Shown: positions 1,766-15,241 of the stretch, piece by piece
Layout: each line of letters opens with the position of its first letter
Numbering within the stretch: the stretch's first letter is position 1
Assembly (NCBI GenBank): GCA_048940445.1
Contig: JBHLON010000055.1
Span: 1-15,636 of the forward strand
Reading direction: 5' to 3'
Origin: Promethearchaeota archaeon
GTDB lineage: Archaea; Asgardarchaeota; Lokiarchaeia; Sigyniarchaeales; SOKP01
Length of the DNA stretch: 15,636 bases
The notes under the pieces: model-generated
Database searches by the model: none
What the model was told of the DNA's origin: nothing
Seen by the model: the letters and a program-made list of their open reading frames with translations, nothing else
Position numbers and translations under genes: made by a program

Positions 1766-2389
1766 TTATTTAACTTCCTTTAACATCTGAATAATGATAT
1801 TTGGATCTGGGGCATTTAAAATTGTACTGGCACTTGTTAAGATATCTACCTTAGACATCTTCATTGCATTTTTAAGATTCACTCCCCCATCAACATCAAT
1901 TTTAAAATTAAAATCTTTTTTTAGAGCTGCTAATTGATTTATTTTATCAATAGTTTTAGGCAAAAATTTCTGACCAGAATATCCTGGATTAACTCCTAAG
2001 ATTAAGATTAGATCAATCAATGAAAGCAATTCAATAATCTCCGAAACTTTAGTTTTCGGATTAATAGCTAATCCTACTTTCTTTTTATTTTCTTTTAAGA
2101 TGTCAATAATTGGTTTTTTATCATTTTTAATTTCAAAATGAAAAAAAATACCTTCTACAAACTCCATTATCTCATGAATATAATCTAAAGGATTAAGAAC
2201 CATTAAGTGGACTAAGATAGGAACCTCAAAACTATCTTTAATGAGGGGTAAAACTTTTAAATTAAGATTTTGAGAAGCAACAAATTTACCATCCATAACA
2301 TCAACATGGATATAATCTAAATTATTTAAGCCTTCAATTAATTTGAGACTAAAGTCATCCTTTGCATGTATAGAAACTGCAACTTTCAT
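1766..2389 (-). CDS. rpe: Ribulose-phosphate 3-epimerase
   Basis: IHVDVMDGKFV, VHLMV, VNPGYSGQKF and VDGGVN motifs; 207 aa. Confidence 0.95.
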   Translation of the reverse strand: MKVAVSIHAKDDFSLKLIEGLNNLDYIHVDVMDGKFVASQNLNLKVLPLIKDSFEVPILVHLMVLNPLDYIHEIMEFVEGIFFHFEIKNDKKPIIDILKENKKKVGLAINPKTKVSEIIELLSLIDLILILGVNPGYSGQKFLPKTIDKINQLAALKKDFNFKIDVDGGVNLKNAMKMSKVDILTSASTILNAPDPNIIIQMLKEVK

Positions 2390-2410
2390 TTTTGAACTAC
2401 TACTAGTTAG

Positions 2411-3349
2411 TTAATGTTTAGAAGAGTCAATCAGTTCTAATAGATTTCTTTTGATATTTTTAACATTTAATCCAAGAGCATCTAATACTTCATTTCTAGA
2501 TCCAGAGGATCCATAAGATTCTTCAACTCCCACAAACCGTATGGGTATGGGATGAGCTTCTGAAAATATCCTAGCTAATATACTACCAAAACCACAATAG
2601 ATATTATGTTCTTCAATAATAATTATACCTTTAACCACAGCTATTTCTTTCAACAAATTGGTTTTATTTATTGGTTTTATCGATGGAAGATTAATCACTT
2701 TTATCGAACATTTAAACTCATTTTCGAGTTCAGAAACTGAGTTCATTCCTAAAATAGTCCCATACCCCGTTCCAATGATGCAATAATCATTACCATCTTT
2801 TAGCACATCTGGACTCCCTAAAACAAAATTATAGGATCGATCATGTATATTTGGAAAACTTCCTCTTGGTAACCTGATATAGAAAGGTCCTTGTCTGTTC
2901 AATGCTAAGTTTAATATCTGAATAAGTTCTATATTGTCACTTGGTACCAATACTGTTAAATTTGGAAGAGTTGCCATGATACTTAAATCTTCTAAAGCAT
3001 TATGGGTACTTCCATCCTTTCCAACTACTCCTCCATGAGTAGTAATAATCTTCACATCTAAATTGTCATGAGATGCTAATCGTATAAATTCCCATGCTCT
3101 TCCAGTAGTAAATATTGAGAATCCACTAACAATGGGAGTTTTCCCTGAAATTGCAAAACCAAGAGCCACCCCCACCATATTCTGTTCGGCAATACCCATG
3201 TTAAAAAATCTTTGGGGAAATTTTTCTGCAAATTTATAGGTTCTAGTAGAAGAGGATAGATCTGCATCTAAGACAACAATATTTTTATTTTGAGCTCCTA
3301 TGTCAATTAAAAATTCACCAAATGTATCTCTAAGGTTCTTTACTTCCAT
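2411..3349 (-). CDS. Transketolase, C-terminal (pyrimidine-binding and C-terminal domain) subunit
   Basis: LDADLSSST, RFFNMGIAEQNMV, DGSTH, GPFYIRLPR and EEHNIYCGFGS motifs. Overlaps the upstream N-terminal subunit gene by 20 bp. Confidence 0.93.
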   Translation of the reverse strand: MEVKNLRDTFGEFLIDIGAQNKNIVVLDADLSSSTRTYKFAEKFPQRFFNMGIAEQNMVGVALGFAISGKTPIVSGFSIFTTGRAWEFIRLASHDNLDVKIITTHGGVVGKDGSTHNALEDLSIMATLPNLTVLVPSDNIELIQILNLALNRQGPFYIRLPRGSFPNIHDRSYNFVLGSPDVLKDGNDYCIIGTGYGTILGMNSVSELENEFKCSIKVINLPSIKPINKTNLLKEIAVVKGIIIIEEHNIYCGFGSILARIFSEAHPIPIRFVGVEESYGSSGSRNEVLDALGLNVKNIKRNLLELIDSSKH

Positions 3350-4199
3350 TTACTCCTACCAAATTTTGTTTTATTTTTTCTAATTCTCTAATCGCTTTAT
3401 CAAATTCTTCTTTGCTGGGAGCTCTTCCATGAAATTTTTTAGTGTGTTCCATAAATGATACTTCAGAGCCCTTGATTAGATATGATATAATCACTTTAGG
3501 CTTTTTTATGACCTTCTTAGATTTTTCAAATCCTGATAAGATTTCATTAACATTAGAGCCATCCACCTCTATAACTTCCCATCCAAAAGACTTCCACTTT
3601 TCAGCTAAAGGCTCTAAAGCCATAATCTCTTCTGTAGAACCATCAATTTGTATTCCATTGCGATCTACTATCGTAATTAAATTATCTAATTTATAATGAC
3701 TTGCTGACATCGCAGCTTCCCATATTGCTCCTTCATTTAGCTCTCCATCTCCCAACAAAACAAAAATATTATTATCTTTCCGATCTAATTTAGCAGCCAA
3801 TGCACATCCCACCCCTATTGAAAGGCCCATTCCTAGAGATCCCGTTGAGATTTCTACACCTATACCTAGATTCTTTATAGGATGTCCTTGAATACTTGAT
3901 AAAAATTCTCTCAGAGTAAACAAATCTCCCCTCTTTATATAACCAATCTTAGATAAAACTGCATACAAAGCAGGAGCAGCATGACCCTTACTAAGAATAA
4001 AAATATCTCTATCCTCCCACCCAGGATTTTTTCGATCAATTTTCATGATCTTATCATATAATAAATATATAATATTTACACACGATAAAGAACCTCCAGG
4101 ATGTCCTGATTGTGCTTGGTATATCATTTTTAATATATCTTTTTTTAAATCTATAATCTCTAATAATAACTGCAATTCTTCATATTCTGAGACTTCCAC
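3330..4199 (-). CDS. Transketolase, N-terminal (ThDP-binding) subunit
   Basis: SGHPGGSLS, RDIFILSKGHAAPALY, QGHP, STGSLGMG, and the ThDP motif GDGELNEGAIWE...N. GTG start. Confidence 0.95.
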   Translation of the reverse strand: MEVSEYEELQLLLEIIDLKKDILKMIYQAQSGHPGGSLSCVNIIYLLYDKIMKIDRKNPGWEDRDIFILSKGHAAPALYAVLSKIGYIKRGDLFTLREFLSSIQGHPIKNLGIGVEISTGSLGMGLSIGVGCALAAKLDRKDNNIFVLLGDGELNEGAIWEAAMSASHYKLDNLITIVDRNGIQIDGSTEEIMALEPLAEKWKSFGWEVIEVDGSNVNEILSGFEKSKKVIKKPKVIISYLIKGSEVSFMEHTKKFHGRAPSKEEFDKAIRELEKIKQNLVGVNGSKEP

Positions 4200-4223
4200 T
4201 TAATTTTTCACAACCTATTTTAA

Positions 4224-5219
4224 TTATTCGTTAAAATTAGCAGAGACATAATTTTTTAGTGTTTCTGAATTAAAAAATTCAACCGGAGGCAATGTTGCGG
4301 AAAGAGCTCCAGCAGCCATTGCAATTTTCGCTCCATTTATAATCGGAATATTTGATGCATAACTTAATCCTAACACTGCCATGATAGAACTGCCAACAGC
4401 TACATAACTCCTAGCAGGTTGACTTAAAATTGGTTTGATTTTTTCTACTTTTTCTTGATCTTTAGAAAAAAGATAAGAATTTATTTCTAAATAATTTAAA
4501 AGAAGATTTCTACTTTTTGAGGAATTTAATATTCTTTTTCCAGCAATAATTATACTGGTCTCAGTACAACAATCTATCGAGAAATTACTTAATGCCTTTT
4601 GTAAATTTATTTTTATTAAATCAATATCTTCATAAAGATAATAATTAGATACATTTGGACGAGCAATAATAGGAATATCTTTATAATTTTTCCTTAACAT
4701 AGCTAATAATTCGGATATAAAATCATCCTTAAATAAATCTCCAGCTCCATAATCCAAAATAATGATGCAATCGATATTTTCAAAATTATCTTTTAATTTC
4801 CCTAGAAAATTATTAATCGTAGTTTTTGAGATTTCACTAGAGTAATCAGTTTCTAATCGCAGTAGATGTTGATTCATTGCTTTTATTCGGGTAATTTGAG
4901 GTGTACTAATATTTTCATCAATTATAATGTTTGATGTGTCAACGCTTAATGAGTCTAATTTTTTAAGAAAGAACTCCCCCTCATAATCATTTCCTACAAT
5001 TGTACTTATTGCAGGAATACCACCTAAGGACTTAATGAACTGTAATACTAAGCCAATTGCACCTAAATATGTGTCATGGCGCTCAATTTTTACATTAGGA
5101 ATGGGGGCATCAGGTGAAATTCGATCTGCTTGCCCAAAAATATAGCGATCTATTAGGGCTTCTCCAATTATTAGAACTTTTTTATTTTTCCATTTTGGAA
5201 TTAAATCTACTAAAGCCAT
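4224..5219 (-). CDS. HldE/RfaE domain-I (heptose-7-phosphate kinase, PfkB family)-like protein, probably catalytically inactive
   Basis: HldE-specific lid motif DRYIFGQADRISPDAPIP, plus NQHLLRLE and LDYGAG (equivalent to SDYAKG). The PfkB catalytic motifs are degenerate (see findings). ATG at 5219 preferred; alternative TTG at 5225. Confidence 0.8.
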   Translation of the reverse strand: MALVDLIPKWKNKKVLIIGEALIDRYIFGQADRISPDAPIPNVKIERHDTYLGAIGLVLQFIKSLGGIPAISTIVGNDYEGEFFLKKLDSLSVDTSNIIIDENISTPQITRIKAMNQHLLRLETDYSSEISKTTINNFLGKLKDNFENIDCIIILDYGAGDLFKDDFISELLAMLRKNYKDIPIIARPNVSNYYLYEDIDLIKINLQKALSNFSIDCCTETSIIIAGKRILNSSKSRNLLLNYLEINSYLFSKDQEKVEKIKPILSQPARSYVAVGSSIMAVLGLSYASNIPIINGAKIAMAAGALSATLPPVEFFNSETLKNYVSANFNE

Positions 5220-5231
5220 AGGCAATCTGTT

Positions 5232-5888
5232 TTATTTTTTTAATTTTGTTTGGAGCTTTTCCCAATCTTTAAGGAATGAGTCTAAGCCCTGATCTGTTCT
5301 TGGGTGTTTAAACATCTTTTCAAGCACATTAAATGGTATTGTAGCAATATGAGCCCCCATCTTTGCAGCCTCGATTACATGTCTAGAATTTCTCACCGAT
5401 GCGACAATTATTTCAGATTTAAAATCATAAGCTTGTATAATTTGCATAGATTCCCATAACATATCAATTTCATCTTGCCCATCATCCATCAATCTCCCGA
5501 TAAAGGGGCTGATATATGAAGCTCCCGCTTTGGCTGCAATTAGTACTTGGTTTTGAGAAAAAACTAATGTAACATTTGTTTTAATTCCCTCAGATTCAAG
5601 AATTTTAACAGCTTTAATCCCTTCCTTTGTCATTGGAATCTTAACAACAATATTAGAAGCTATTTTTGCTAATTCTCTAGCTTCTTTGACCATTTCTTCT
5701 GTTTTTAGACCTACAACTTCTGCACTGACCGGTCCATCCACAATTTCACAAATTTTTTTTAATTGTTCTATAGGTTCTGCACCCTCTCTTGATAATAATG
5801 TAGGATTAGTCGTTACTCCATCGATTATTCCTAAATCTTGCATTTCTTTTATTTGTTCTAAATTTGCAGTATCTATAAAGAATTTCAT
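5232..5888 (-). CDS. tal: Transaldolase (short TalC/FSA-like family)
   Basis: [16 protein letters not shown], Schiff-base Lys in VVKIP, NVTLVFS. Glu in SAEV and Phe in SPFIGR are the transaldolase-type residues; FSA has Gln and Tyr. Confidence 0.93.
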
Positions 5889-5918
5889 TTTAAGGTCACA
5901 TCTATACTTATTATTAAT

Positions 5919-6482
5919 CTATAATTTTGAATCTAATTTTAAATTTTTAGCAAATTCTAATAAATTATCAAAAATAAAATCAGGTATCACTTCATCAATT
6001 TTAACTCTTTCTTTTTCTCCATATCCAGTTAAAACTAATACTGTTTGACATTTTGCTCCTAATCCTGTTTCAATATCATTTAACGTATCCCCTACCATAA
6101 ATGACTCCCTTAAATCAATATTATATTTGTCTTTTGCTTTTAAAATCATACCTGGGTTAGGTTTTCTGCAATTACATGGTCCTGTGAAATCAGGATGATG
6201 AGGACAATAAAAAATATCATCCAATGTTATATTATTTTCATTTAATATTCGATTCATCTTGTTATGAATTTCCTTAAGGGTTGCTTCTGAAAAATATCCC
6301 TTTGCTATTCCTGCTTGATTGGATATTATTATTAAAAGATACCCAAGACTTTTTAGAATTTTTAAAGCTTCGATTGATCCTTCAATAAATTGAAAATTCT
6401 CGGGATCGGATAGATGATTTACTTCTTCATTAATAACTCCGTCTCTATCCAAAAATATTGCTTTATTAATATTTATCATCAT
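5919..6482 (-). CDS. gmhB: D-glycero-D-manno-heptose 1,7-bisphosphate phosphatase (HAD family)
   Basis: FLDRDGVIN, SNQAGI, Zn site CPHH...CNCRKPNPGM, MVGD, LVLTGYG. Lies adjacent to gmhA. Confidence 0.92.
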   Translation of the reverse strand: MMININKAIFLDRDGVINEEVNHLSDPENFQFIEGSIEALKILKSLGYLLIIISNQAGIAKGYFSEATLKEIHNKMNRILNENNITLDDIFYCPHHPDFTGPCNCRKPNPGMILKAKDKYNIDLRESFMVGDTLNDIETGLGAKCQTVLVLTGYGEKERVKIDEVIPDFIFDNLLEFAKNLKLDSKL

Positions 6483-6485
6483 TAA

Positions 6486-7052
6486 TTAACTAAAAAGTTC
6501 CTTTTCAACTAAATAACAAATGATATGTCCAACAGTAATATGCCCCTCTTGAATTCTAGGAGTATCATTTGATGGTATCTTGAGACAATAATCTACAATC
6601 CCTTCCATTTTATTCTGTTTTTGTCCTGTAAAACCAATAGTAATTGCTCCTTTCTCCTTGGCCTTATTTAATCCTCTTATAACATTAGGAGAATTACCCG
6701 ATGTACTTATTCCAATTGTAATGTCTCCTTTTTCAACAAAAGAAGATACTTGTCTCTCGAATATAAATTCATATCCATAATCATTAGCAGTTGCAGTAAC
6801 TACAGATGTATTAGTGTGAAACGCTAAAGCTGGAAGTGATTGACGATCTTTGTAAAATTTTCCTACAAATTCAGCTGCGATATGTTGCGCATCTGCAGCA
6901 CTACCACCATTTCCAAAAAGTACCACCTTTTTCTTGTTGTTATAAGCTTCAATAATTTCTTTTGATATTTGCGCTATTAAAGGCACAAGCTTTTTAATTT
7001 CTTCCTTTATTTTAATACCTTCATTCAATATTGAAACAATTTCATCTTCCAT
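6486..7052 (-). CDS. gmhA: Sedoheptulose-7-phosphate (phosphoheptose) isomerase
   Basis: GNGGSAADAQHIAAE, TATANDYGY, GISTSGNS and TPRIQEGH motifs. Likely start is ATG 7052 (or 7061); the track's 7100 start overlaps hddA. Confidence 0.95.
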   Translation of the reverse strand: MEDEIVSILNEGIKIKEEIKKLVPLIAQISKEIIEAYNNKKKVVLFGNGGSAADAQHIAAEFVGKFYKDRQSLPALAFHTNTSVVTATANDYGYEFIFERQVSSFVEKGDITIGISTSGNSPNVIRGLNKAKEKGAITIGFTGQKQNKMEGIVDYCLKIPSNDTPRIQEGHITVGHIICYLVEKELFS

Positions 7053-7081
7053 AAATATCATTCTCATAAGAGTTTTAATCA

Positions 7082-8095
7082 TTAAATTTGTGATTTCCAC
7101 ACTTCTAATCCTTTAGGATTAAAATGAAAATTTACAATAACGCCCCCAATTTTTTTTAATTCATTTATCACATTAAATTTTTTATCTGGATCGGAAAAAA
7201 GGAGTAGGTGTCCTCCACCACCTGCTCCAAGCAATTTCCCACCTATAACACCAAACTTTCTCGAAGTTATATAGAAGTTTTCAACATTTTTGTTTGATAT
7301 TTTTGAACTCAGACTTTTTTTAGATAACCACCCTTTATGAATAAGTTCCCCAAATTCATTTAACTTATTGATGTCTTTAAACTCAAGTATCTTTTTCATT
7401 TCATACGCAACATCTTTTAAATCTTGCATTGTCTCAATAAAAGATTTTCTCTCTTCCTTATAGCCCTCCAATACTTCGTCTTGAATATCAGAAGAAAAAT
7501 GCGAACCTCCTACATAACATAAAATCAGTCGATATTGAAGTTCATTAAGCATCTCTGCGGTTGTAATTATTGGAAAAACCTTTACAGATTCTTTAAATTC
7601 CATGAAATTAAAGCCTCCATAAGCAGCAGCAAATTGGTCTTGATAACCACCCTTTTGTTGTAGTTCAATCCTTTCTACATCATAAGCTTTTTGGGCAATT
7701 TCATGTTTTGTTAAGTTTAATTGATAATATTCATTAAACGCCCCTATAAGAGCAACGACTAAGGTAGAAGATCCTCCCATACCTGAACCTGCTGGTAATT
7801 CTGACGATACATCAACATTAAATCCATCAGAGATATCCAATACATTAACTGTGCCCTTGAAAAGTTCATAACCATCAGAGTAATTATTATCTCCTACATC
7901 GAATAGAAATTCTTCATTAAGATCAGTTGACTTGACTTTTATCTTCTTATCATCCCTAGGCGCTATTGAAATATAGACATGACGATCAATTGCTGTGTTA
8001 ATTACACATCCTCCATGTTCAGTGCAATAGGGAGGTAAATCTGTACCACCACCTCCAAAACTTACTCTGAAAGGAGCTTTTGAACGTATTATCAT
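7082..8095 (-). CDS. hddA: D-glycero-alpha-D-manno-heptose 7-phosphate kinase (GHMP kinase)
   Basis: SKAPFRVSFGGGGTD, PAGSGMGGSS, GGYQDQFAAAYGGFN and GGKLLGAGGGG motifs. Context with gmhA and gmhB. Confidence 0.88.
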   Translation of the reverse strand: MIIRSKAPFRVSFGGGGTDLPPYCTEHGGCVINTAIDRHVYISIAPRDDKKIKVKSTDLNEEFLFDVGDNNYSDGYELFKGTVNVLDISDGFNVDVSSELPAGSGMGGSSTLVVALIGAFNEYYQLNLTKHEIAQKAYDVERIELQQKGGYQDQFAAAYGGFNFMEFKESVKVFPIITTAEMLNELQYRLILCYVGGSHFSSDIQDEVLEGYKEERKSFIETMQDLKDVAYEMKKILEFKDINKLNEFGELIHKGWLSKKSLSSKISNKNVENFYITSRKFGVIGGKLLGAGGGGHLLLFSDPDKKFNVINELKKIGGVIVNFHFNPKGLEVWKSQI

Positions 8096-8227: not shown

Positions 8228-11200
8228 TTAGGATTGTCGTTTAAATTCATATTCTATTAATTTAACGTCTTTAGCCTTGATTTTTGCTTGGCAGTAAGGA
8301 CACTTTACTTCAGGTTGTTTTTTGAATCGAGATACTACATTATCTTTTAATGAAGCTGAACATTCTTTATTTGGGCATATGTGCAACTGACCAAACACTT
8401 TTCCCTTTTCTTTCTGCAAACTTTCATTGATTATACTGATATTACTCGCACTTACTTTCTCTGAAATCAAATCTTTATTCTTGTTGAGATAATCATTTAG
8501 ATAGTTTGCCTTGACACCAAATCGTAATTCAATATTTTCTCCTACATTATATTTATTTCTTTTTCGCGAATACTGAATGTTCCTAATTAAGTCATTTACT
8601 ACACGCTCAGCAAGTAGCTCATCATCTAAACTTATGTCCAAATATATATTGCAAAACTTTGTTTCCATTTTGAGGAACTGCTCAGTATCTTTAACTGATT
8701 TTGAAACTACTAAGTCTCTTACATTTCCAATTTGTTTTACGATTTCTGGAAACTCAATCTCAGGCATTCCCTCCTTAGGTTCGATCACTAGTCTTTTATT
8801 TGGCCATCTTAACCGAATGTTATTTTCATCCTTTAATGCTCTTATATTTTCTATTAAGTCTCTTGTGAAAGTCATCTGGTTTTCCAAATCTGTATCAATC
8901 AATTTTTCATTAAACTGCGGCCAATCCTGTAGATGCACGCTCTCTGTTTCAGGTAATCCCATTGACTTTAAATGACTTTTAAACATTTTTAAGAATATTT
9001 CTTCCGCAATCATTGGATTAACCGGTGCTAATAATATTAAATAGTTATATAACACGTGATATAAGACTGCCATTATCTGTAATTTATTTGGATCATCAGA
9101 ATAAACATCTAGCTTTTCCCGATTTAACATTATATACCATCTGCTTATGTCATTAACCGCCAGATCCTTCAATTCACCCGTAATCCATGGAAGTTGGTAT
9201 TCATCTGAAAGTTGGGTTATTTTCTTTATTGTAGAATTTAATCTTGAAAGTATCCATTTATCAAATTTGCTTATTTTTTTTATATCGAATTTAACCTTCG
9301 AGGGATTAAATTTAGCTAAATTAAATTTTTCGTGAGCATATACATAAATATTCCATATTGTATTAAGAATCTTGTAAGTGTCAGTATATTCTTTAAGGTT
9401 AAAGTTGAAATCCCGGCCTGGTTGTGTCACTCCTATGCAATAAAATCTAAGTGTCTCTGCTCCTTTAATATTTGATAAGGATTTATTTCTCTGTAGTTCA
9501 GGCACATCACCAGTAATAAGATCCTCAGGACTTACTACAGTTCCTTTTGATTTACTCATTTTAGCTCTTTCTAGAAGAACAAATCCGTGCATAAAACAGG
9601 AATCATAATTCTTTCTCCCTGAGGATATCATTGCACTACTAAGTAAGCTATTAAACCATCCTCTAATTTGATCTTTGCCTTCTATTATAAAATCTACTGG
9701 TGTCCAAGTATCATAATGACTCTTACCGTCATAAACCTCTTGAGCTGCCCATACAACTGAGCCAGAATCTAACCATACGTCCGAAATATCTGGAATTCTC
9801 TTTTTAGTACCCTTATTACACTTCTTACATTTCCACGTAACTTTATCTATCCATGGTCTATGTAAATCCTCGGGGCATTCTCCTGCTACTTCTTTTAATT
9901 CCTTACTTGATCCTATTACTGTGATATCTCCACAATCCTTATTATCACAGACCCATATACTTAAAGGGATTCCCCAAAAACGTTGCCGTGAGATACACCA
10001 ATCTCTTAAAGAAGTTAACCAACTTTTAAACCATCTTTCTCCTGCCCAATCTGGAATCCAATATATATCTTCATTCTCTTTAAGCAATTCAGGAACTAAA
10101 TTCTCTGTTTTAAAAAACCATTGATTCGTTGCTCGATATACCAGTTTTGAACCACACCTCCAACAATGAGCGTATTCATGTTCTATTTCATTAGTCAAAA
10201 TGAGTGTTCCTTTTTTCTTTAAAAGATCCAAGATAACTTTATTTGCATCAAAAACATTTATTCCCGCAAATTGACCCGCTTCCTTTTTATAAATACCTCT
10301 AATATTCACCGGGTTGAAAACGGGAATACCATTTTCTACTCCAACTTCAAAATCTTCTGGTCCATGTCCTGGCGCTGAATGAACTAAACCAACCCCTTCT
10401 GCTGCTGAAACATACTTTTCAGAAAGTATTATAGAATGAACTTTTTCACTTTTCTTCGCAAGTTCCTTCTGATAAGGCACTTCATCTAATAACGGATGTA
10501 TGTATTTCTTACCCTCCAATTCTTCTCCTAATATATCTTCTACAATTTTATACTTATAACCTAATTCACCCGAAATTAAATAAGTTACGGATGCCTTTGA
10601 TAAGATCCAATATTCTTTTAGATCCTCGATATAAACCTTAGCATACTCTATGATTGGATTTGCCATTATTGCTGAATTCGCTACTAAAGTCCATGGAGTC
10701 GTAGTCCAAATTATAAAATACGTATCATCCATATCTGCTGATTTGATTTTCAAGAATAAACTTGTATCTTTTATGTTTTTATATTCATGCTCATGTTTAG
10801 CTAAAGCAGTAGCACATCGTGGACAACAGTTTATAGGTCGATAAAATTGATACAATAAATCCTTTTCCCATGCTTTCTTTAATGTCCACCAAATGCCCTC
10901 AAGATAACTATTTTTATATGTGACATACGGATTTTCCCAATCCCAAAAATAGCATCCTAATCGCTTGAATTGGTCATTCATAATAGCTAGATTTTTTAAA
11001 GCAAACTCCTTACAACTTCTAATAAATTTATCTGCTCCATAGTCTATAATCTCTTGTTTATTTTTTATTCCTAATTCCTTCTCCATCTGAACTTCTATTG
11101 GTAATCCATGAGTATCATAGCCAGGAGTATCAGTGACCCTAAATCCACGCAGTCTTTTATAACGTATCATGTAATCTTTTAGAATTTTATTCCATGCAGT

Positions 11201-11377
11201 ACCAAGATGTATTGAACCCGTGGTGTATGGAGGTCCATCTATAAACCTCCAGACCTGTTTATCAGCTTCTTTCTTCCTTATAAGAGAATAGATATCTTCC
11301 TTTTCCCAAAATTCGAATATCTTCTCCTCTAATTTTTGAAGATTTAACCTCTTATCTAATGCTTCCATGCAAATCAT
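8228..11377 (-). CDS. ileS: Isoleucine--tRNA ligase (archaeal/eukaryote-type, IleRS2)
   Basis: DGPPY, HIGH-like HLGT, GYDTHGLPIE, editing-domain WTTTPWTL and GLVHSAPGHGPEDF, DWCISRQRFWG, EGKDQIRGWF, KMSKS. The start may be ATG 11368. Confidence 0.97.
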   Translation of the reverse strand: MICMEALDKRLNLQKLEEKIFEFWEKEDIYSLIRKKEADKQVWRFIDGPPYTTGSIHLGTAWNKILKDYMIRYKRLRGFRVTDTPGYDTHGLPIEVQMEKELGIKNKQEIIDYGADKFIRSCKEFALKNLAIMNDQFKRLGCYFWDWENPYVTYKNSYLEGIWWTLKKAWEKDLLYQFYRPINCCPRCATALAKHEHEYKNIKDTSLFLKIKSADMDDTYFIIWTTTPWTLVANSAIMANPIIEYAKVYIEDLKEYWILSKASVTYLISGELGYKYKIVEDILGEELEGKKYIHPLLDEVPYQKELAKKSEKVHSIILSEKYVSAAEGVGLVHSAPGHGPEDFEVGVENGIPVFNPVNIRGIYKKEAGQFAGINVFDANKVILDLLKKKGTLILTNEIEHEYAHCWRCGSKLVYRATNQWFFKTENLVPELLKENEDIYWIPDWAGERWFKSWLTSLRDWCISRQRFWGIPLSIWVCDNKDCGDITVIGSSKELKEVAGECPEDLHRPWIDKVTWKCKKCNKGTKKRIPDISDVWLDSGSVVWAAQEVYDGKSHYDTWTPVDFIIEGKDQIRGWFNSLLSSAMISSGRKNYDSCFMHGFVLLERAKMSKSKGTVVSPEDLITGDVPELQRNKSLSNIKGAETLRFYCIGVTQPGRDFNFNLKEYTDTYKILNTIWNIYVYAHEKFNLAKFNPSKVKFDIKKISKFDKWILSRLNSTIKKITQLSDEYQLPWITGELKDLAVNDISRWYIMLNREKLDVYSDDPNKLQIMAVLYHVLYNYLILLAPVNPMIAEEIFLKMFKSHLKSMGLPETESVHLQDWPQFNEKLIDTDLENQMTFTRDLIENIRALKDENNIRLRWPNKRLVIEPKEGMPEIEFPEIVKQIGNVRDLVVSKSVKDTEQFLKMETKFCNIYLDISLDDELLAERVVNDLIRNIQYSRKRNKYNVGENIELRFGVKANYLNDYLNKNKDLISEKVSASNISIINESLQKEKGKVFGQLHICPNKECSASLKDNVVSRFKKQPEVKCPYCQAKIKAKDVKLIEYEFKRQS

Positions 11378-11511: not shown

Positions 11512-13182
11512 CTACGGTATTAAATCTGGAGGAGGAACTTTAAGACAGAAACCACATTTGCCAAATGACTTTATGGTTTGCTCCCAGCAGTGCTTGTGGT
11601 AGGATCGATCGCAATAAGGACAGTCTACATGACACGTTTCTCCATCTGATCCCGCAATTTTTAAGCTACATGTGGCACATTCTATCTTATGACAAATCAC
11701 ACATGAAACAACTGAAACTTCAAATATCTTCTTGGAAATCGAATTAAATAAATCTACTAAATAACTAAATGGCGTCCAATCATCAAAAAAATCTTTAAAC
11801 GAATTCTGTAAGTCATTCTTAATCTTTTCATGCGCATCTAAATCAAATTCATTTAATACTTTTATTGTAGGCACTTTCATGGGATAATCTATTGGTAAAT
11901 CAATCTGAAATTGAAACGTTAAATCTTGCGTCTTCATTTTTCCCTTCATGTCAACCTTTAATGAGTTCGTCGATGGATCATATGTAATATCTTTATAGTG
12001 CTCCTTTAGTAGTTCGATTTCAAAATTTACTCTTGAATTTTTGTCAACTAACCATGCTATTTCTCTTATTAATCCAACTGATTCAGATTCATTCTCAACC
12101 CAATTTTCATATGCGCTCAGCTTGCTTATCGGTATCTTTATTAAGTCTTGTAGATTGCCAGATAGGTTTATTACAGGGGGTTTAGGATATGCACTTAAAT
12201 CAAAATCAAGAAGATACTCATTAAATCCATACGTCACCAAATGAACCGTCAATTTTGTAATATCATTTGCATCCACATCACAATGATATTCCCCTGAAAT
12301 CTTTTTTAACTCTAATTCAATATCCTTCACAAGATGTAACTTTGCCTCTAATTCTCGCAGAATCTCTACCACATGTGGCGGATTATCTACACTCCAATCC
12401 CTCAATATGCTCAAAAAATGATAAGGATCACCTAAAAGTGCTCGAATCTCATCTGGAACCGTTATTAACGGCCTCTCAGGGTACTTCTGGAAATTTAATT
12501 CAATCAGAAACGTTTTCGCCAGAGTAACCGTAAGATATAGGATAATATCTCCAACAAATGGACCTTTCTGATCATATGCATACTCATGCTGAATTAACCC
12601 CAATTCCGTATTTACTTCTAAATTGGTCTCAGTTTCTTCAACTATAATTTCTGGTTGAGATGGAATTTGAATTTCTGAATCTGCTTTTGGGAAATGATCT
12701 TGGGTGGGTTCTTCTGGAGTGATATATTGCTCATATTCAAAATCAGGAGGATATGCATTAAGATCAGGTGTAATATACTCTTCTTGCTCTTTAATGTCAG
12801 ACTCAATTGTTTCTGCTTTTTGAGACTTCTGTACGCTAACTTGAGGTTCTGCTTTTACTTCTTTATCTACTTGCTCAATGCTCAACGCGTTTTCGATCTT
12901 CGATTTAAGCTCTTTAAGAACATTTGTGACTTTTGAACCAGGAGTCCATACATTAAGCGTATGAAGTTCAAAACTTCCAAGCAAATTCTTTATCTCCTTA
13001 TAATAAATTAACTCTGGTGGGCTCTCTGGAAATTGGTCATCGAACTTTATCTCTAATTCATATTTTTTATCGGGCGTCTCGAGAACATAGCCAAACAAAT
13101 GTGAAATATCCCCAGAAACCATCCAAAATCTAAAATCTGATGCTATACTCTGAGCCTCTTGAAGAACTCTCTGCTTATTCAT
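11512..13182 (-). CDS. Tandem UEV/RWD (UBC-fold) x4 plus C-terminal C4HC3 RING protein; putative E3 ubiquitin ligase
   Basis: Four ~95-105 aa units, each with an N-terminal helix, a (Y/F)P-x2-3-P turn (FPESPP 51-56, YPERP 234-238, YPKPP 332-336, YPMKVP 433-438) and a later Trp before a C-terminal helix (W79, W263, W361, W469). The C-terminus reads CVIC...CPYC-x4-H-x2-CW-x9-CGFC. Confidence 0.75.
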   Translation of the reverse strand: MNKQRVLQEAQSIASDFRFWMVSGDISHLFGYVLETPDKKYELEIKFDDQFPESPPELIYYKEIKNLLGSFELHTLNVWTPGSKVTNVLKELKSKIENALSIEQVDKEVKAEPQVSVQKSQKAETIESDIKEQEEYITPDLNAYPPDFEYEQYITPEEPTQDHFPKADSEIQIPSQPEIIVEETETNLEVNTELGLIQHEYAYDQKGPFVGDIILYLTVTLAKTFLIELNFQKYPERPLITVPDEIRALLGDPYHFLSILRDWSVDNPPHVVEILRELEAKLHLVKDIELELKKISGEYHCDVDANDITKLTVHLVTYGFNEYLLDFDLSAYPKPPVINLSGNLQDLIKIPISKLSAYENWVENESESVGLIREIAWLVDKNSRVNFEIELLKEHYKDITYDPSTNSLKVDMKGKMKTQDLTFQFQIDLPIDYPMKVPTIKVLNEFDLDAHEKIKNDLQNSFKDFFDDWTPFSYLVDLFNSISKKIFEVSVVSCVICHKIECATCSLKIAGSDGETCHVDCPYCDRSYHKHCWEQTIKSFGKCGFCLKVPPPDLIP

Positions 13183-13224: not shown

Positions 13225-13271
13225 AATCTAAATTTAATCTTAAAAATCTTTATAAATAGCGTGATATAAAA
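13225..13271. repeat. 47-bp direct repeat, copy 1 (contains TTTATAAA at 13249-13256)
   Basis: aatctaaatttaatcttaaaaatctttataaatagcgtgatataaaa matches 15070-15116 at 44/47 positions, with a 29-bp perfect core at 13230-13258. Confidence 0.9.
13249..13258. promoter_or_regulatory. Candidate archaeal TATA box (TTTATAAATA) with an A-rich BRE-like flank
   Basis: Matches the archaeal TATA consensus and is intergenic, about 67 bp upstream of the UEV-RING start. The core is palindromic, so its direction is ambiguous. The AT-rich background lowers specificity. Confidence 0.4.
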
Positions 13272-13354
13272 ATTGAGTTTGATCTTTGATTTTGATAGAG
13301 ACTTATGAAAATCGTAAACGATTTAATACTTGAAAATTTTAATGATTTAATCTA

Positions 13355-15069: not shown

Positions 15070-15116
15070 AATCAAAATTTAATCTTAAAAATCTTTATAA
15101 ATACCGTGAAATAAAA
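15070..15116. repeat. 47-bp direct repeat, copy 2 (contains TTTATAAA at 15094-15101)
   Basis: aatcaaaatttaatcttaaaaatctttataaataccgtgaaataaaa; same orientation as copy 1, offset 1845 bp. Confidence 0.9.
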
Positions 15117-15241
15117 TTCTATTTGGATGTTCACTTTAATATTATAAATTCAAAATCTTAAATAGAAGAGATACTAAATCCCGCTCAAGAGAAAATAAAT
15201 AATAACTTATTATAATAATAGTATATTACCACGATATAAGA

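Follow-up and report, generated by a model that had tools for sequence, protein, structure and literature searches.

A lokiarchaeial protein with tandem inactive E2-like units and a predicted three-zinc RING, a likely single-chain ubiquitin ligase of FANCL-like layout

Described ligases and adaptors with inactive UBC folds

In the Fanconi anaemia ligase FANCL (PDB 7kzp_L, 9a0j_L, 3k1l) three inactive UBC folds are followed by a C4HC3 RING in one chain, in which the RING binds the E2, the double RWD binds the substrate and the ELF binds ubiquitin (PMC4543658). Listerin/Ltn1 (PDB 8aaf_e, 9gy4_F) ends in an RWD domain and a C4HC3 RING, and BABAM2/BRE (PDB 6gvw_C), a component of BRCA1-A and BRISC, is a RING-less tandem array of inactive UBC folds (UEV-RWD-UEV) that partners a JAMM/JAB deubiquitinase. 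In archaea, RINGs encoded together with ubiquitin, E1, E2 and JAB act as E3s, as described for the small RING-H2 protein srfp of Caldiarchaeum (PMC5654768) and for a Helarchaeia RING (bioRxiv 2023.07.25.550441), both of which were described without a tandem pseudo-E2 array; for the RING of an archaeal ubiquitin operon E3 activity is proven (PMC5654768). Tromer et al. (PMC6601020) listed one Asgard RWD-like sequence and considered inactive RWD domains and RWD-RING ligases mostly a eukaryotic expansion; their Asgard sequence could be a member of the family described below, of which no published account was found in the literature searched.

The gene considered here occupies positions 11512–13182 (minus strand, as are all its parts) of the window, the whole 15,636-nucleotide stretch of Promethearchaeota DNA that was analysed. 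It encodes a protein of 556 aa (P0001) which, judged from 309 homologues and structure models, is made up of four pseudo-E2 units and a RING with three predicted zinc sites. The best 120 of the 309 homologues are 55–79% identical to it; where named, they are mostly labelled Promethearchaeota or Lokiarchaeota, and in databases family members are annotated as hypothetical, as an E2 variant or as a ubiquitin-protein ligase. The genome carrying the gene (G000) is 93% complete.

When a model of units 2–4 and the RING was searched with Foldseek, human FANCL was the best match, aligned end to end (E 2.2e-8, 12–15% identity), followed by BABAM2 (E 2.4e-6) and Ltn1. The annotation had further claimed that units 2–4 plus the RING reproduce the FANCL architecture, which holds for the order of parts, since three UBC folds lacking both HPN and an active-site Cys precede a C-terminal RING, and for the rank of the structural match, but not for the FANCL domain models or for the finger. 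FANCL_d1, d2, d3 and FANCL_C were not found in order above the curated cut-offs (FANCL_C was not listed), and the stray matches are weak and out of order: d1 in 1/40 for unit 3 and 1/40 for unit 4, d2 in 2/40 for unit 4. FANCL was not found among the best 60 PDB sequence matches of the core profile, and a search of G000 with a model of FancD2, which FANCL monoubiquitinates along with FANCI, using UBE2T, in the FA core complex, gave no match but was run without a positive control. The domains are also packed differently (TM 0.25–0.30, rmsd about 26 Å against the archaeal model): units 2–4 of the archaeal protein are joined by helices, whereas the ELF of FANCL contacts no other domain (PMC4543658). 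Moreover, the archaeal protein adds unit 1, a linker and a third zinc site, its 12 conserved ligands setting it apart from the two-zinc RING of FANCL. Three distant members of the family do have a two-zinc form, and these, at 351–367 aa, equal FANCL in size. By language-model features the RING lies nearest to the FANCL_C/Listerin clusters (0.84–0.88), which is a lead. The protein is therefore not filed as FANCL, as none of the FANCL Pfam models is matched in order, the finger has a third zinc site, units 1–3 look like internal duplicates and no full-length copy was found in 239 Asgard genomes outside Lokiarchaeia; by analogy it probably works like FANCL.

Inactive UBC/RWD units and the RING finger

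Unit 1 (aa 1–100; 12883–13182) has a UBC/UEV fold without a catalytic Cys; it is accessory and is missing from members in other orders. It is followed by a linker (aa 101–186; 12625–12882) that is disordered (pLDDT <50), acidic (23 Asp/Glu per 86 aa), Pro-rich and variable in length, and within which a short segment containing YITPDLNAYPP (aa 134–157; 12712–12783) is conserved at a mean of 0.77, whereas the linker on either side of it averages 0.27 and 0.36; it may possibly be a docking peptide. Unit 2 (aa 187–286; 12325–12624) is a pseudo-E2 of the type also seen in Asgard UEV-JAB fusions and has weak BRE matches, unit 3 (aa 287–381; 12040–12324) is a pseudo-E2 with continuous helices to units 2 and 4, and unit 4 (aa 382–490; 11713–12039) is RWD/E2-like. 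The four UBC/RWD repeats of the first-pass annotation are borne out. Each unit carries a [YF]P-x-x-(x)-P turn (P52/P56, P235/P238, P333/P336, P434/P438) and a downstream Trp (W79, W263, W361, W469), and the turn prolines and all four Trp are invariant across 43 homologues. AlphaFold gives each unit a helix/beta-meander/helix layout, with residues 103–199 disordered, and two Pfam models score over their cut-offs on the full protein, UQ_con at E 1.4e-8 and RWD at E 5.5e-7. The core model (aa 186–552; pLDDT 88, pTM 0.62) has long helices linking units 2–3 and 3–4. Because unit-versus-unit profile E-values span 1e-8 to 1e-22, the repetition is not due to chance; units 1, 2 and 3 match one another at 1e-15 to 1e-22 (unit 2 against units 1 and 3 by hhalign: 4e-18 and 1e-22) and unit 4 matches at 1e-8 to 1e-12.

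The RING (aa 491–548; 11539–11712) has the C4HC3 ligands C494, C497, C521, C524, H529, C532, C543 and C546 that the first-pass annotation had recognised, together with four further Cys/His that it had overlooked (C502, C505, C517, H531). None of these four varies in 43/43 close homologues, and 42/49 diverse sequences with an intact core have the complete set. They align with the ligands of the third zinc site in loop 1 of RBX1. In three distant two-zinc members (P0145, P0151, P0159) all four are lost jointly while the first Cys pair is kept, a pattern of loss that supports the RBX1 register; in seven others H531 is replaced by Cys. From the alignment, the finger thus carries a predicted RBX1-like third zinc site with 12 conserved ligands in all. 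Searched against the PDB, the finger profile has RBX1 as its best full-span match (E 1.3e-5); RNF4, Pirh2 and RBX2 score close to it. Although both proteins have an extra Cys-Cys-Cys-His site inserted in loop 1, RBX1 is a small, cullin-bound RING-H2 subunit rather than a C4HC3 finger, and the archaeal RING is fused to an adaptor array of its own; no cullin above the cut-off was found in G000. The same three-zinc finger also occurs on unrelated Lokiarchaeia proteins of 170–700 aa (G153 C32, G154 C498, G155 C243, G157 C143; P0178–P0230).

As UQ_con exceeds its cut-off and C4HC3 is also a PHD pattern, one might think of an active E2-E3 fusion, or of a PHD-type reader outside ubiquitin transfer; either is extremely improbable. 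An E2 would carry HPN and a catalytic Cys, whereas the 556-aa protein lacks HPN, its sole Cys ahead of the RING is C301 in strand 1 of unit 3, the ten-residue stretch ending at the conserved Trp holds no Cys in units 2–4 of 52 diverse sequences, and unit 4, aligned to a cognate E2, lacks the HPN-to-Cys segment, all in agreement with the inactivity first proposed. PHD fingers rank below E3 RINGs in the PDB matches of the finger profile, with E-values roughly a hundred times higher, and the model places a RING helix after H529/C532.

W533, picked earlier for mutation along with H529 and C532, aligns with the buried I84 of RBX1 and not with its E2-contacting W87, whose place is taken by T536. The usual E2-contacting Trp, the Pro after Cys7 and the Arg linchpin are replaced by T536, G544 and L547, respectively, although RNF4 has Ser at the canonical Trp position. 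These three replacements bear on how well the RING would prime E2~Ub and weigh against an E3 role. When the RING, the cognate E2 (G000 C52) and zinc were modelled as a complex, the median was 0.27 against a mark of 0.32, which counts neither for nor against binding.

Gene neighbourhood, ubiquitin operons and distribution

Downstream of the ligase gene at this locus is an isoleucyl-tRNA synthetase gene (ileS, 8228–11377, minus strand; named by sequence inspection and taken as context outside the ligase). No ubiquitin genes adjoin, which weighs against an E3 role, and ileS is found nearby downstream in roughly 60/80 loci of close relatives. This link to translation and the shared C-terminal RWD plus C4HC3 RING might suggest a Listerin-like ribosome quality-control ligase tagging stalled nascent chains on the large subunit. 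Such a role is highly improbable, as the 556-aa model has neither the HEAT arm nor the N-terminal NEMF/60S-binding domain of Ltn1, in place of which stand three more pseudo-E2 units, the whole length being taken up by UBC units, linker and RING, and as the association with ileS is confined to a single order and may be inherited synteny. Just upstream of the ligase gene, a 62-nt direct repeat (window positions 13225–13286 and 15070–15131; 85% identical, 1845 bp apart) brackets a UDP-sugar dehydrogenase gene, one copy lying about 45–100 bp upstream of the ligase start codon; a promoter scan with a bacterial model gave nothing over chance, and no RNA run containing the gene was found. Window positions 1766–8095 hold an ADP/GDP-heptose and pentose-phosphate cluster, named by sequence inspection (ribulose-phosphate epimerase, split transketolase, PfkB kinase, transaldolase, GmhB, GmhA and GHMP kinase).

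Homologues of the gene are encoded with ubiquitin, E1, E2 and JAB, whereas at this locus ubiquitin, E1 and E2 reside elsewhere in G000. The gene order is E3-Ub-E1-E2-JAB-RING in L069–L071, Ub-E1-E2-JAB-E3 in L226 (whose ubiquitin clusters with Thermoplasmata proteins), E3-E1-E2-JAB in G128 (L043), E3-E1 in G126, G127 and G129 (L039, L040, L042) and E2-like-JAB-E3 in L049. The ubiquitin-linked loci occupy four separate branches of the family tree, which was midpoint-rooted without P0156 and without eukaryotic rows and has some long branches. L069 contains a second RING gene in the same operon, which could be an alternative candidate for the operon E3. The operons also identify the partners in G000: their ubiquitin genes match C62 (34911–35162), a pro-ubiquitin ending in GG plus one residue, and their E1 and E2 match C138 (from 16599, running off the contig; L043 has a complete orthologue) and C52 (3944–4450). 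The C52 E2 keeps HPN, Cys89 and the P-F and P-S loops described as RING-binding (PMC5654768); like the full-length ligase, its close orthologues are restricted to Lokiarchaeia. G000 has a second Ub-E1-E2-JAB-RING cluster, split across C68/C70, and a JAB-E1-E2 cluster on C110. Ubiquitin-like ORFs upstream of E1 in C68 (31156–33713) have acidic N-terminal extensions and end in STAG, not GG, and one further ubiquitin-like domain is fused to a membrane protein. A Roadblock-like gene, recognised by eye, and a small helical ORF precede a 3xUBC-RING paralogue in L048 (4424–5148) and L050 (1984–2735).

Among 400 Asgard genomes searched, full-length members occur only in Lokiarchaeia. With P0145 as query at E 1e-10, 92 genomes were matched and 0/239 outside Lokiarchaeia, a count that in MAG searches means not found, short of proven absence; a contig scan with P0145 as lone query gave no match. 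In the Asgard classes usually placed nearest to eukaryotes no full-length copy was found. A representative search gave 224 matches at E <0.001, their taxa unnamed. Unit 1 is absent from members of another order (some labelled Helarchaeota) and from several paralogues, all of which consist of exactly 3xUBC plus RING, and a branch with an extra N-terminal RING is found in three Thermoplasmata genomes. Other variants are P0174 (614 aa), in which a degenerate finger accompanies some five pseudo-E2 units in tandem, P0155 and P0158, with an N-terminal zinc ribbon and three units but no RING, and a fusion of the same pseudo-E2 unit as in the ligase with a JAB domain in G000 (C4:64462–65211), a kind for which the ESM Atlas has a Promethearchaeota cluster.

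The first-pass annotation had proposed co-occurrence with ubiquitin, E1 and E2 as a check. Within Lokiarchaeia E2 co-occurrence is uninformative, since 156/161 genomes have an E2; in Thermoplasmata all three carriers also have the C52 type of E2 with JAB, two of them with E1 in the stretch examined. UQ_con matches also occur in thirteen further Thermoplasmata genomes that are without the ligase gene, and the one inspected (G418) has a different E2 type. Operons of the Lokiarchaeia Ub-E1-E2-JAB type occur in Thermoplasmata in L090 (4624–7722) and L226 (4671–10076), the latter including the ligase, which suggests that the whole ubiquitin system was passed between archaeal phyla. Three closed or near-complete Lokiarchaeia genomes (G135, G138, G143) keep the E2 and lack the full gene, so the ligase is not the obligatory E3.

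The operons also bear on whether the protein could instead be a non-catalytic adaptor akin to BABAM2/BRE, whose array would bind ubiquitin or ubiquitinated proteins and scaffold JAB, with the RING being structural or dimerising. BABAM2 ranks second to FANCL among the structural matches, units 2–3 have weak BRE Pfam matches and, by language-model features, BRE as their nearest neighbour (0.85, which is no more than a lead), JAB is fused to the same unit in G000 C4 and sits beside the gene in L049 and L226, and the RING is without the canonical Trp, Pro and Arg. However, BABAM2 has no RING, whereas in the archaeal family the RING ranks with the most conserved parts (0.82) and nearly every full-length member keeps it, the gene usually has E1 or ubiquitin beside it in operons, and some related RING-less tandem pseudo-E2 proteins exist apart (P0155, P0158). 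The adaptor role is hence improbable, though it is less so than the Listerin-like one.

Proposed function and origin

Most likely, the protein serves the archaeal ubiquitin cascade as an E3 ligase of the single-chain RING type, since relatives lie inside ubiquitin-tagging operons; its top structural matches FANCL and Ltn1 are both E3s, and the best PDB matches of the RING profile are E3 RINGs. In the proposed cascade, JAB would trim the pro-ubiquitin (G000 C62), which E1 (C138) would activate and load onto the E2 (C52). The RING would then engage E2~Ub by way of its helix and zinc loops, while its third zinc would brace loop 1 in the manner of RBX1, the helix-linked units 2–4 may hold the substrate, as the double RWD of FANCL does, and the tethered unit 1 may bind ubiquitin or a partner, like the FANCL ELF and like Asgard UEVs, which bind ubiquitin (PMC9192718). 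These roles are assigned because FANCL, Asgard UEVs and operon RINGs act in this way.

As to origin, it is more likely that the layout arose by duplication of an archaeal pseudo-E2 before a RING, in parallel to FANCL, than that the protein represents a direct ancestor of FANCL; the mutual matches of units 1–3 and the recurrence of the unit in other Asgard fusions such as UEV-JAB favour duplication within archaea. Direct ancestry shared by the 3xUBC plus RING core with FANCL (and with modules of Ltn1 and BABAM2), and by the finger with RBX1/APC11, is rather unlikely, but it keeps some weight because fast eukaryotic divergence could hide homology and because the two-zinc members of 351–367 aa resemble FANCL. 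If such descent were true, a substrate-selecting multi-domain ligase of eukaryotic design would have predated eukaryotes, in archaea.

The archaeal E3s in the literature searched are RINGs without such arrays, next to which the present family would be a FANCL-type multi-domain ligase built by archaea. As its cognate ubiquitin, E1, E2 and JAB are identifiable from the operons, it offers a four-protein system for questions of E3 origin, and it bears on the rise of substrate-selecting E3s and of the RBX1-type three-zinc RING, and on whether these reflect descent or convergence.
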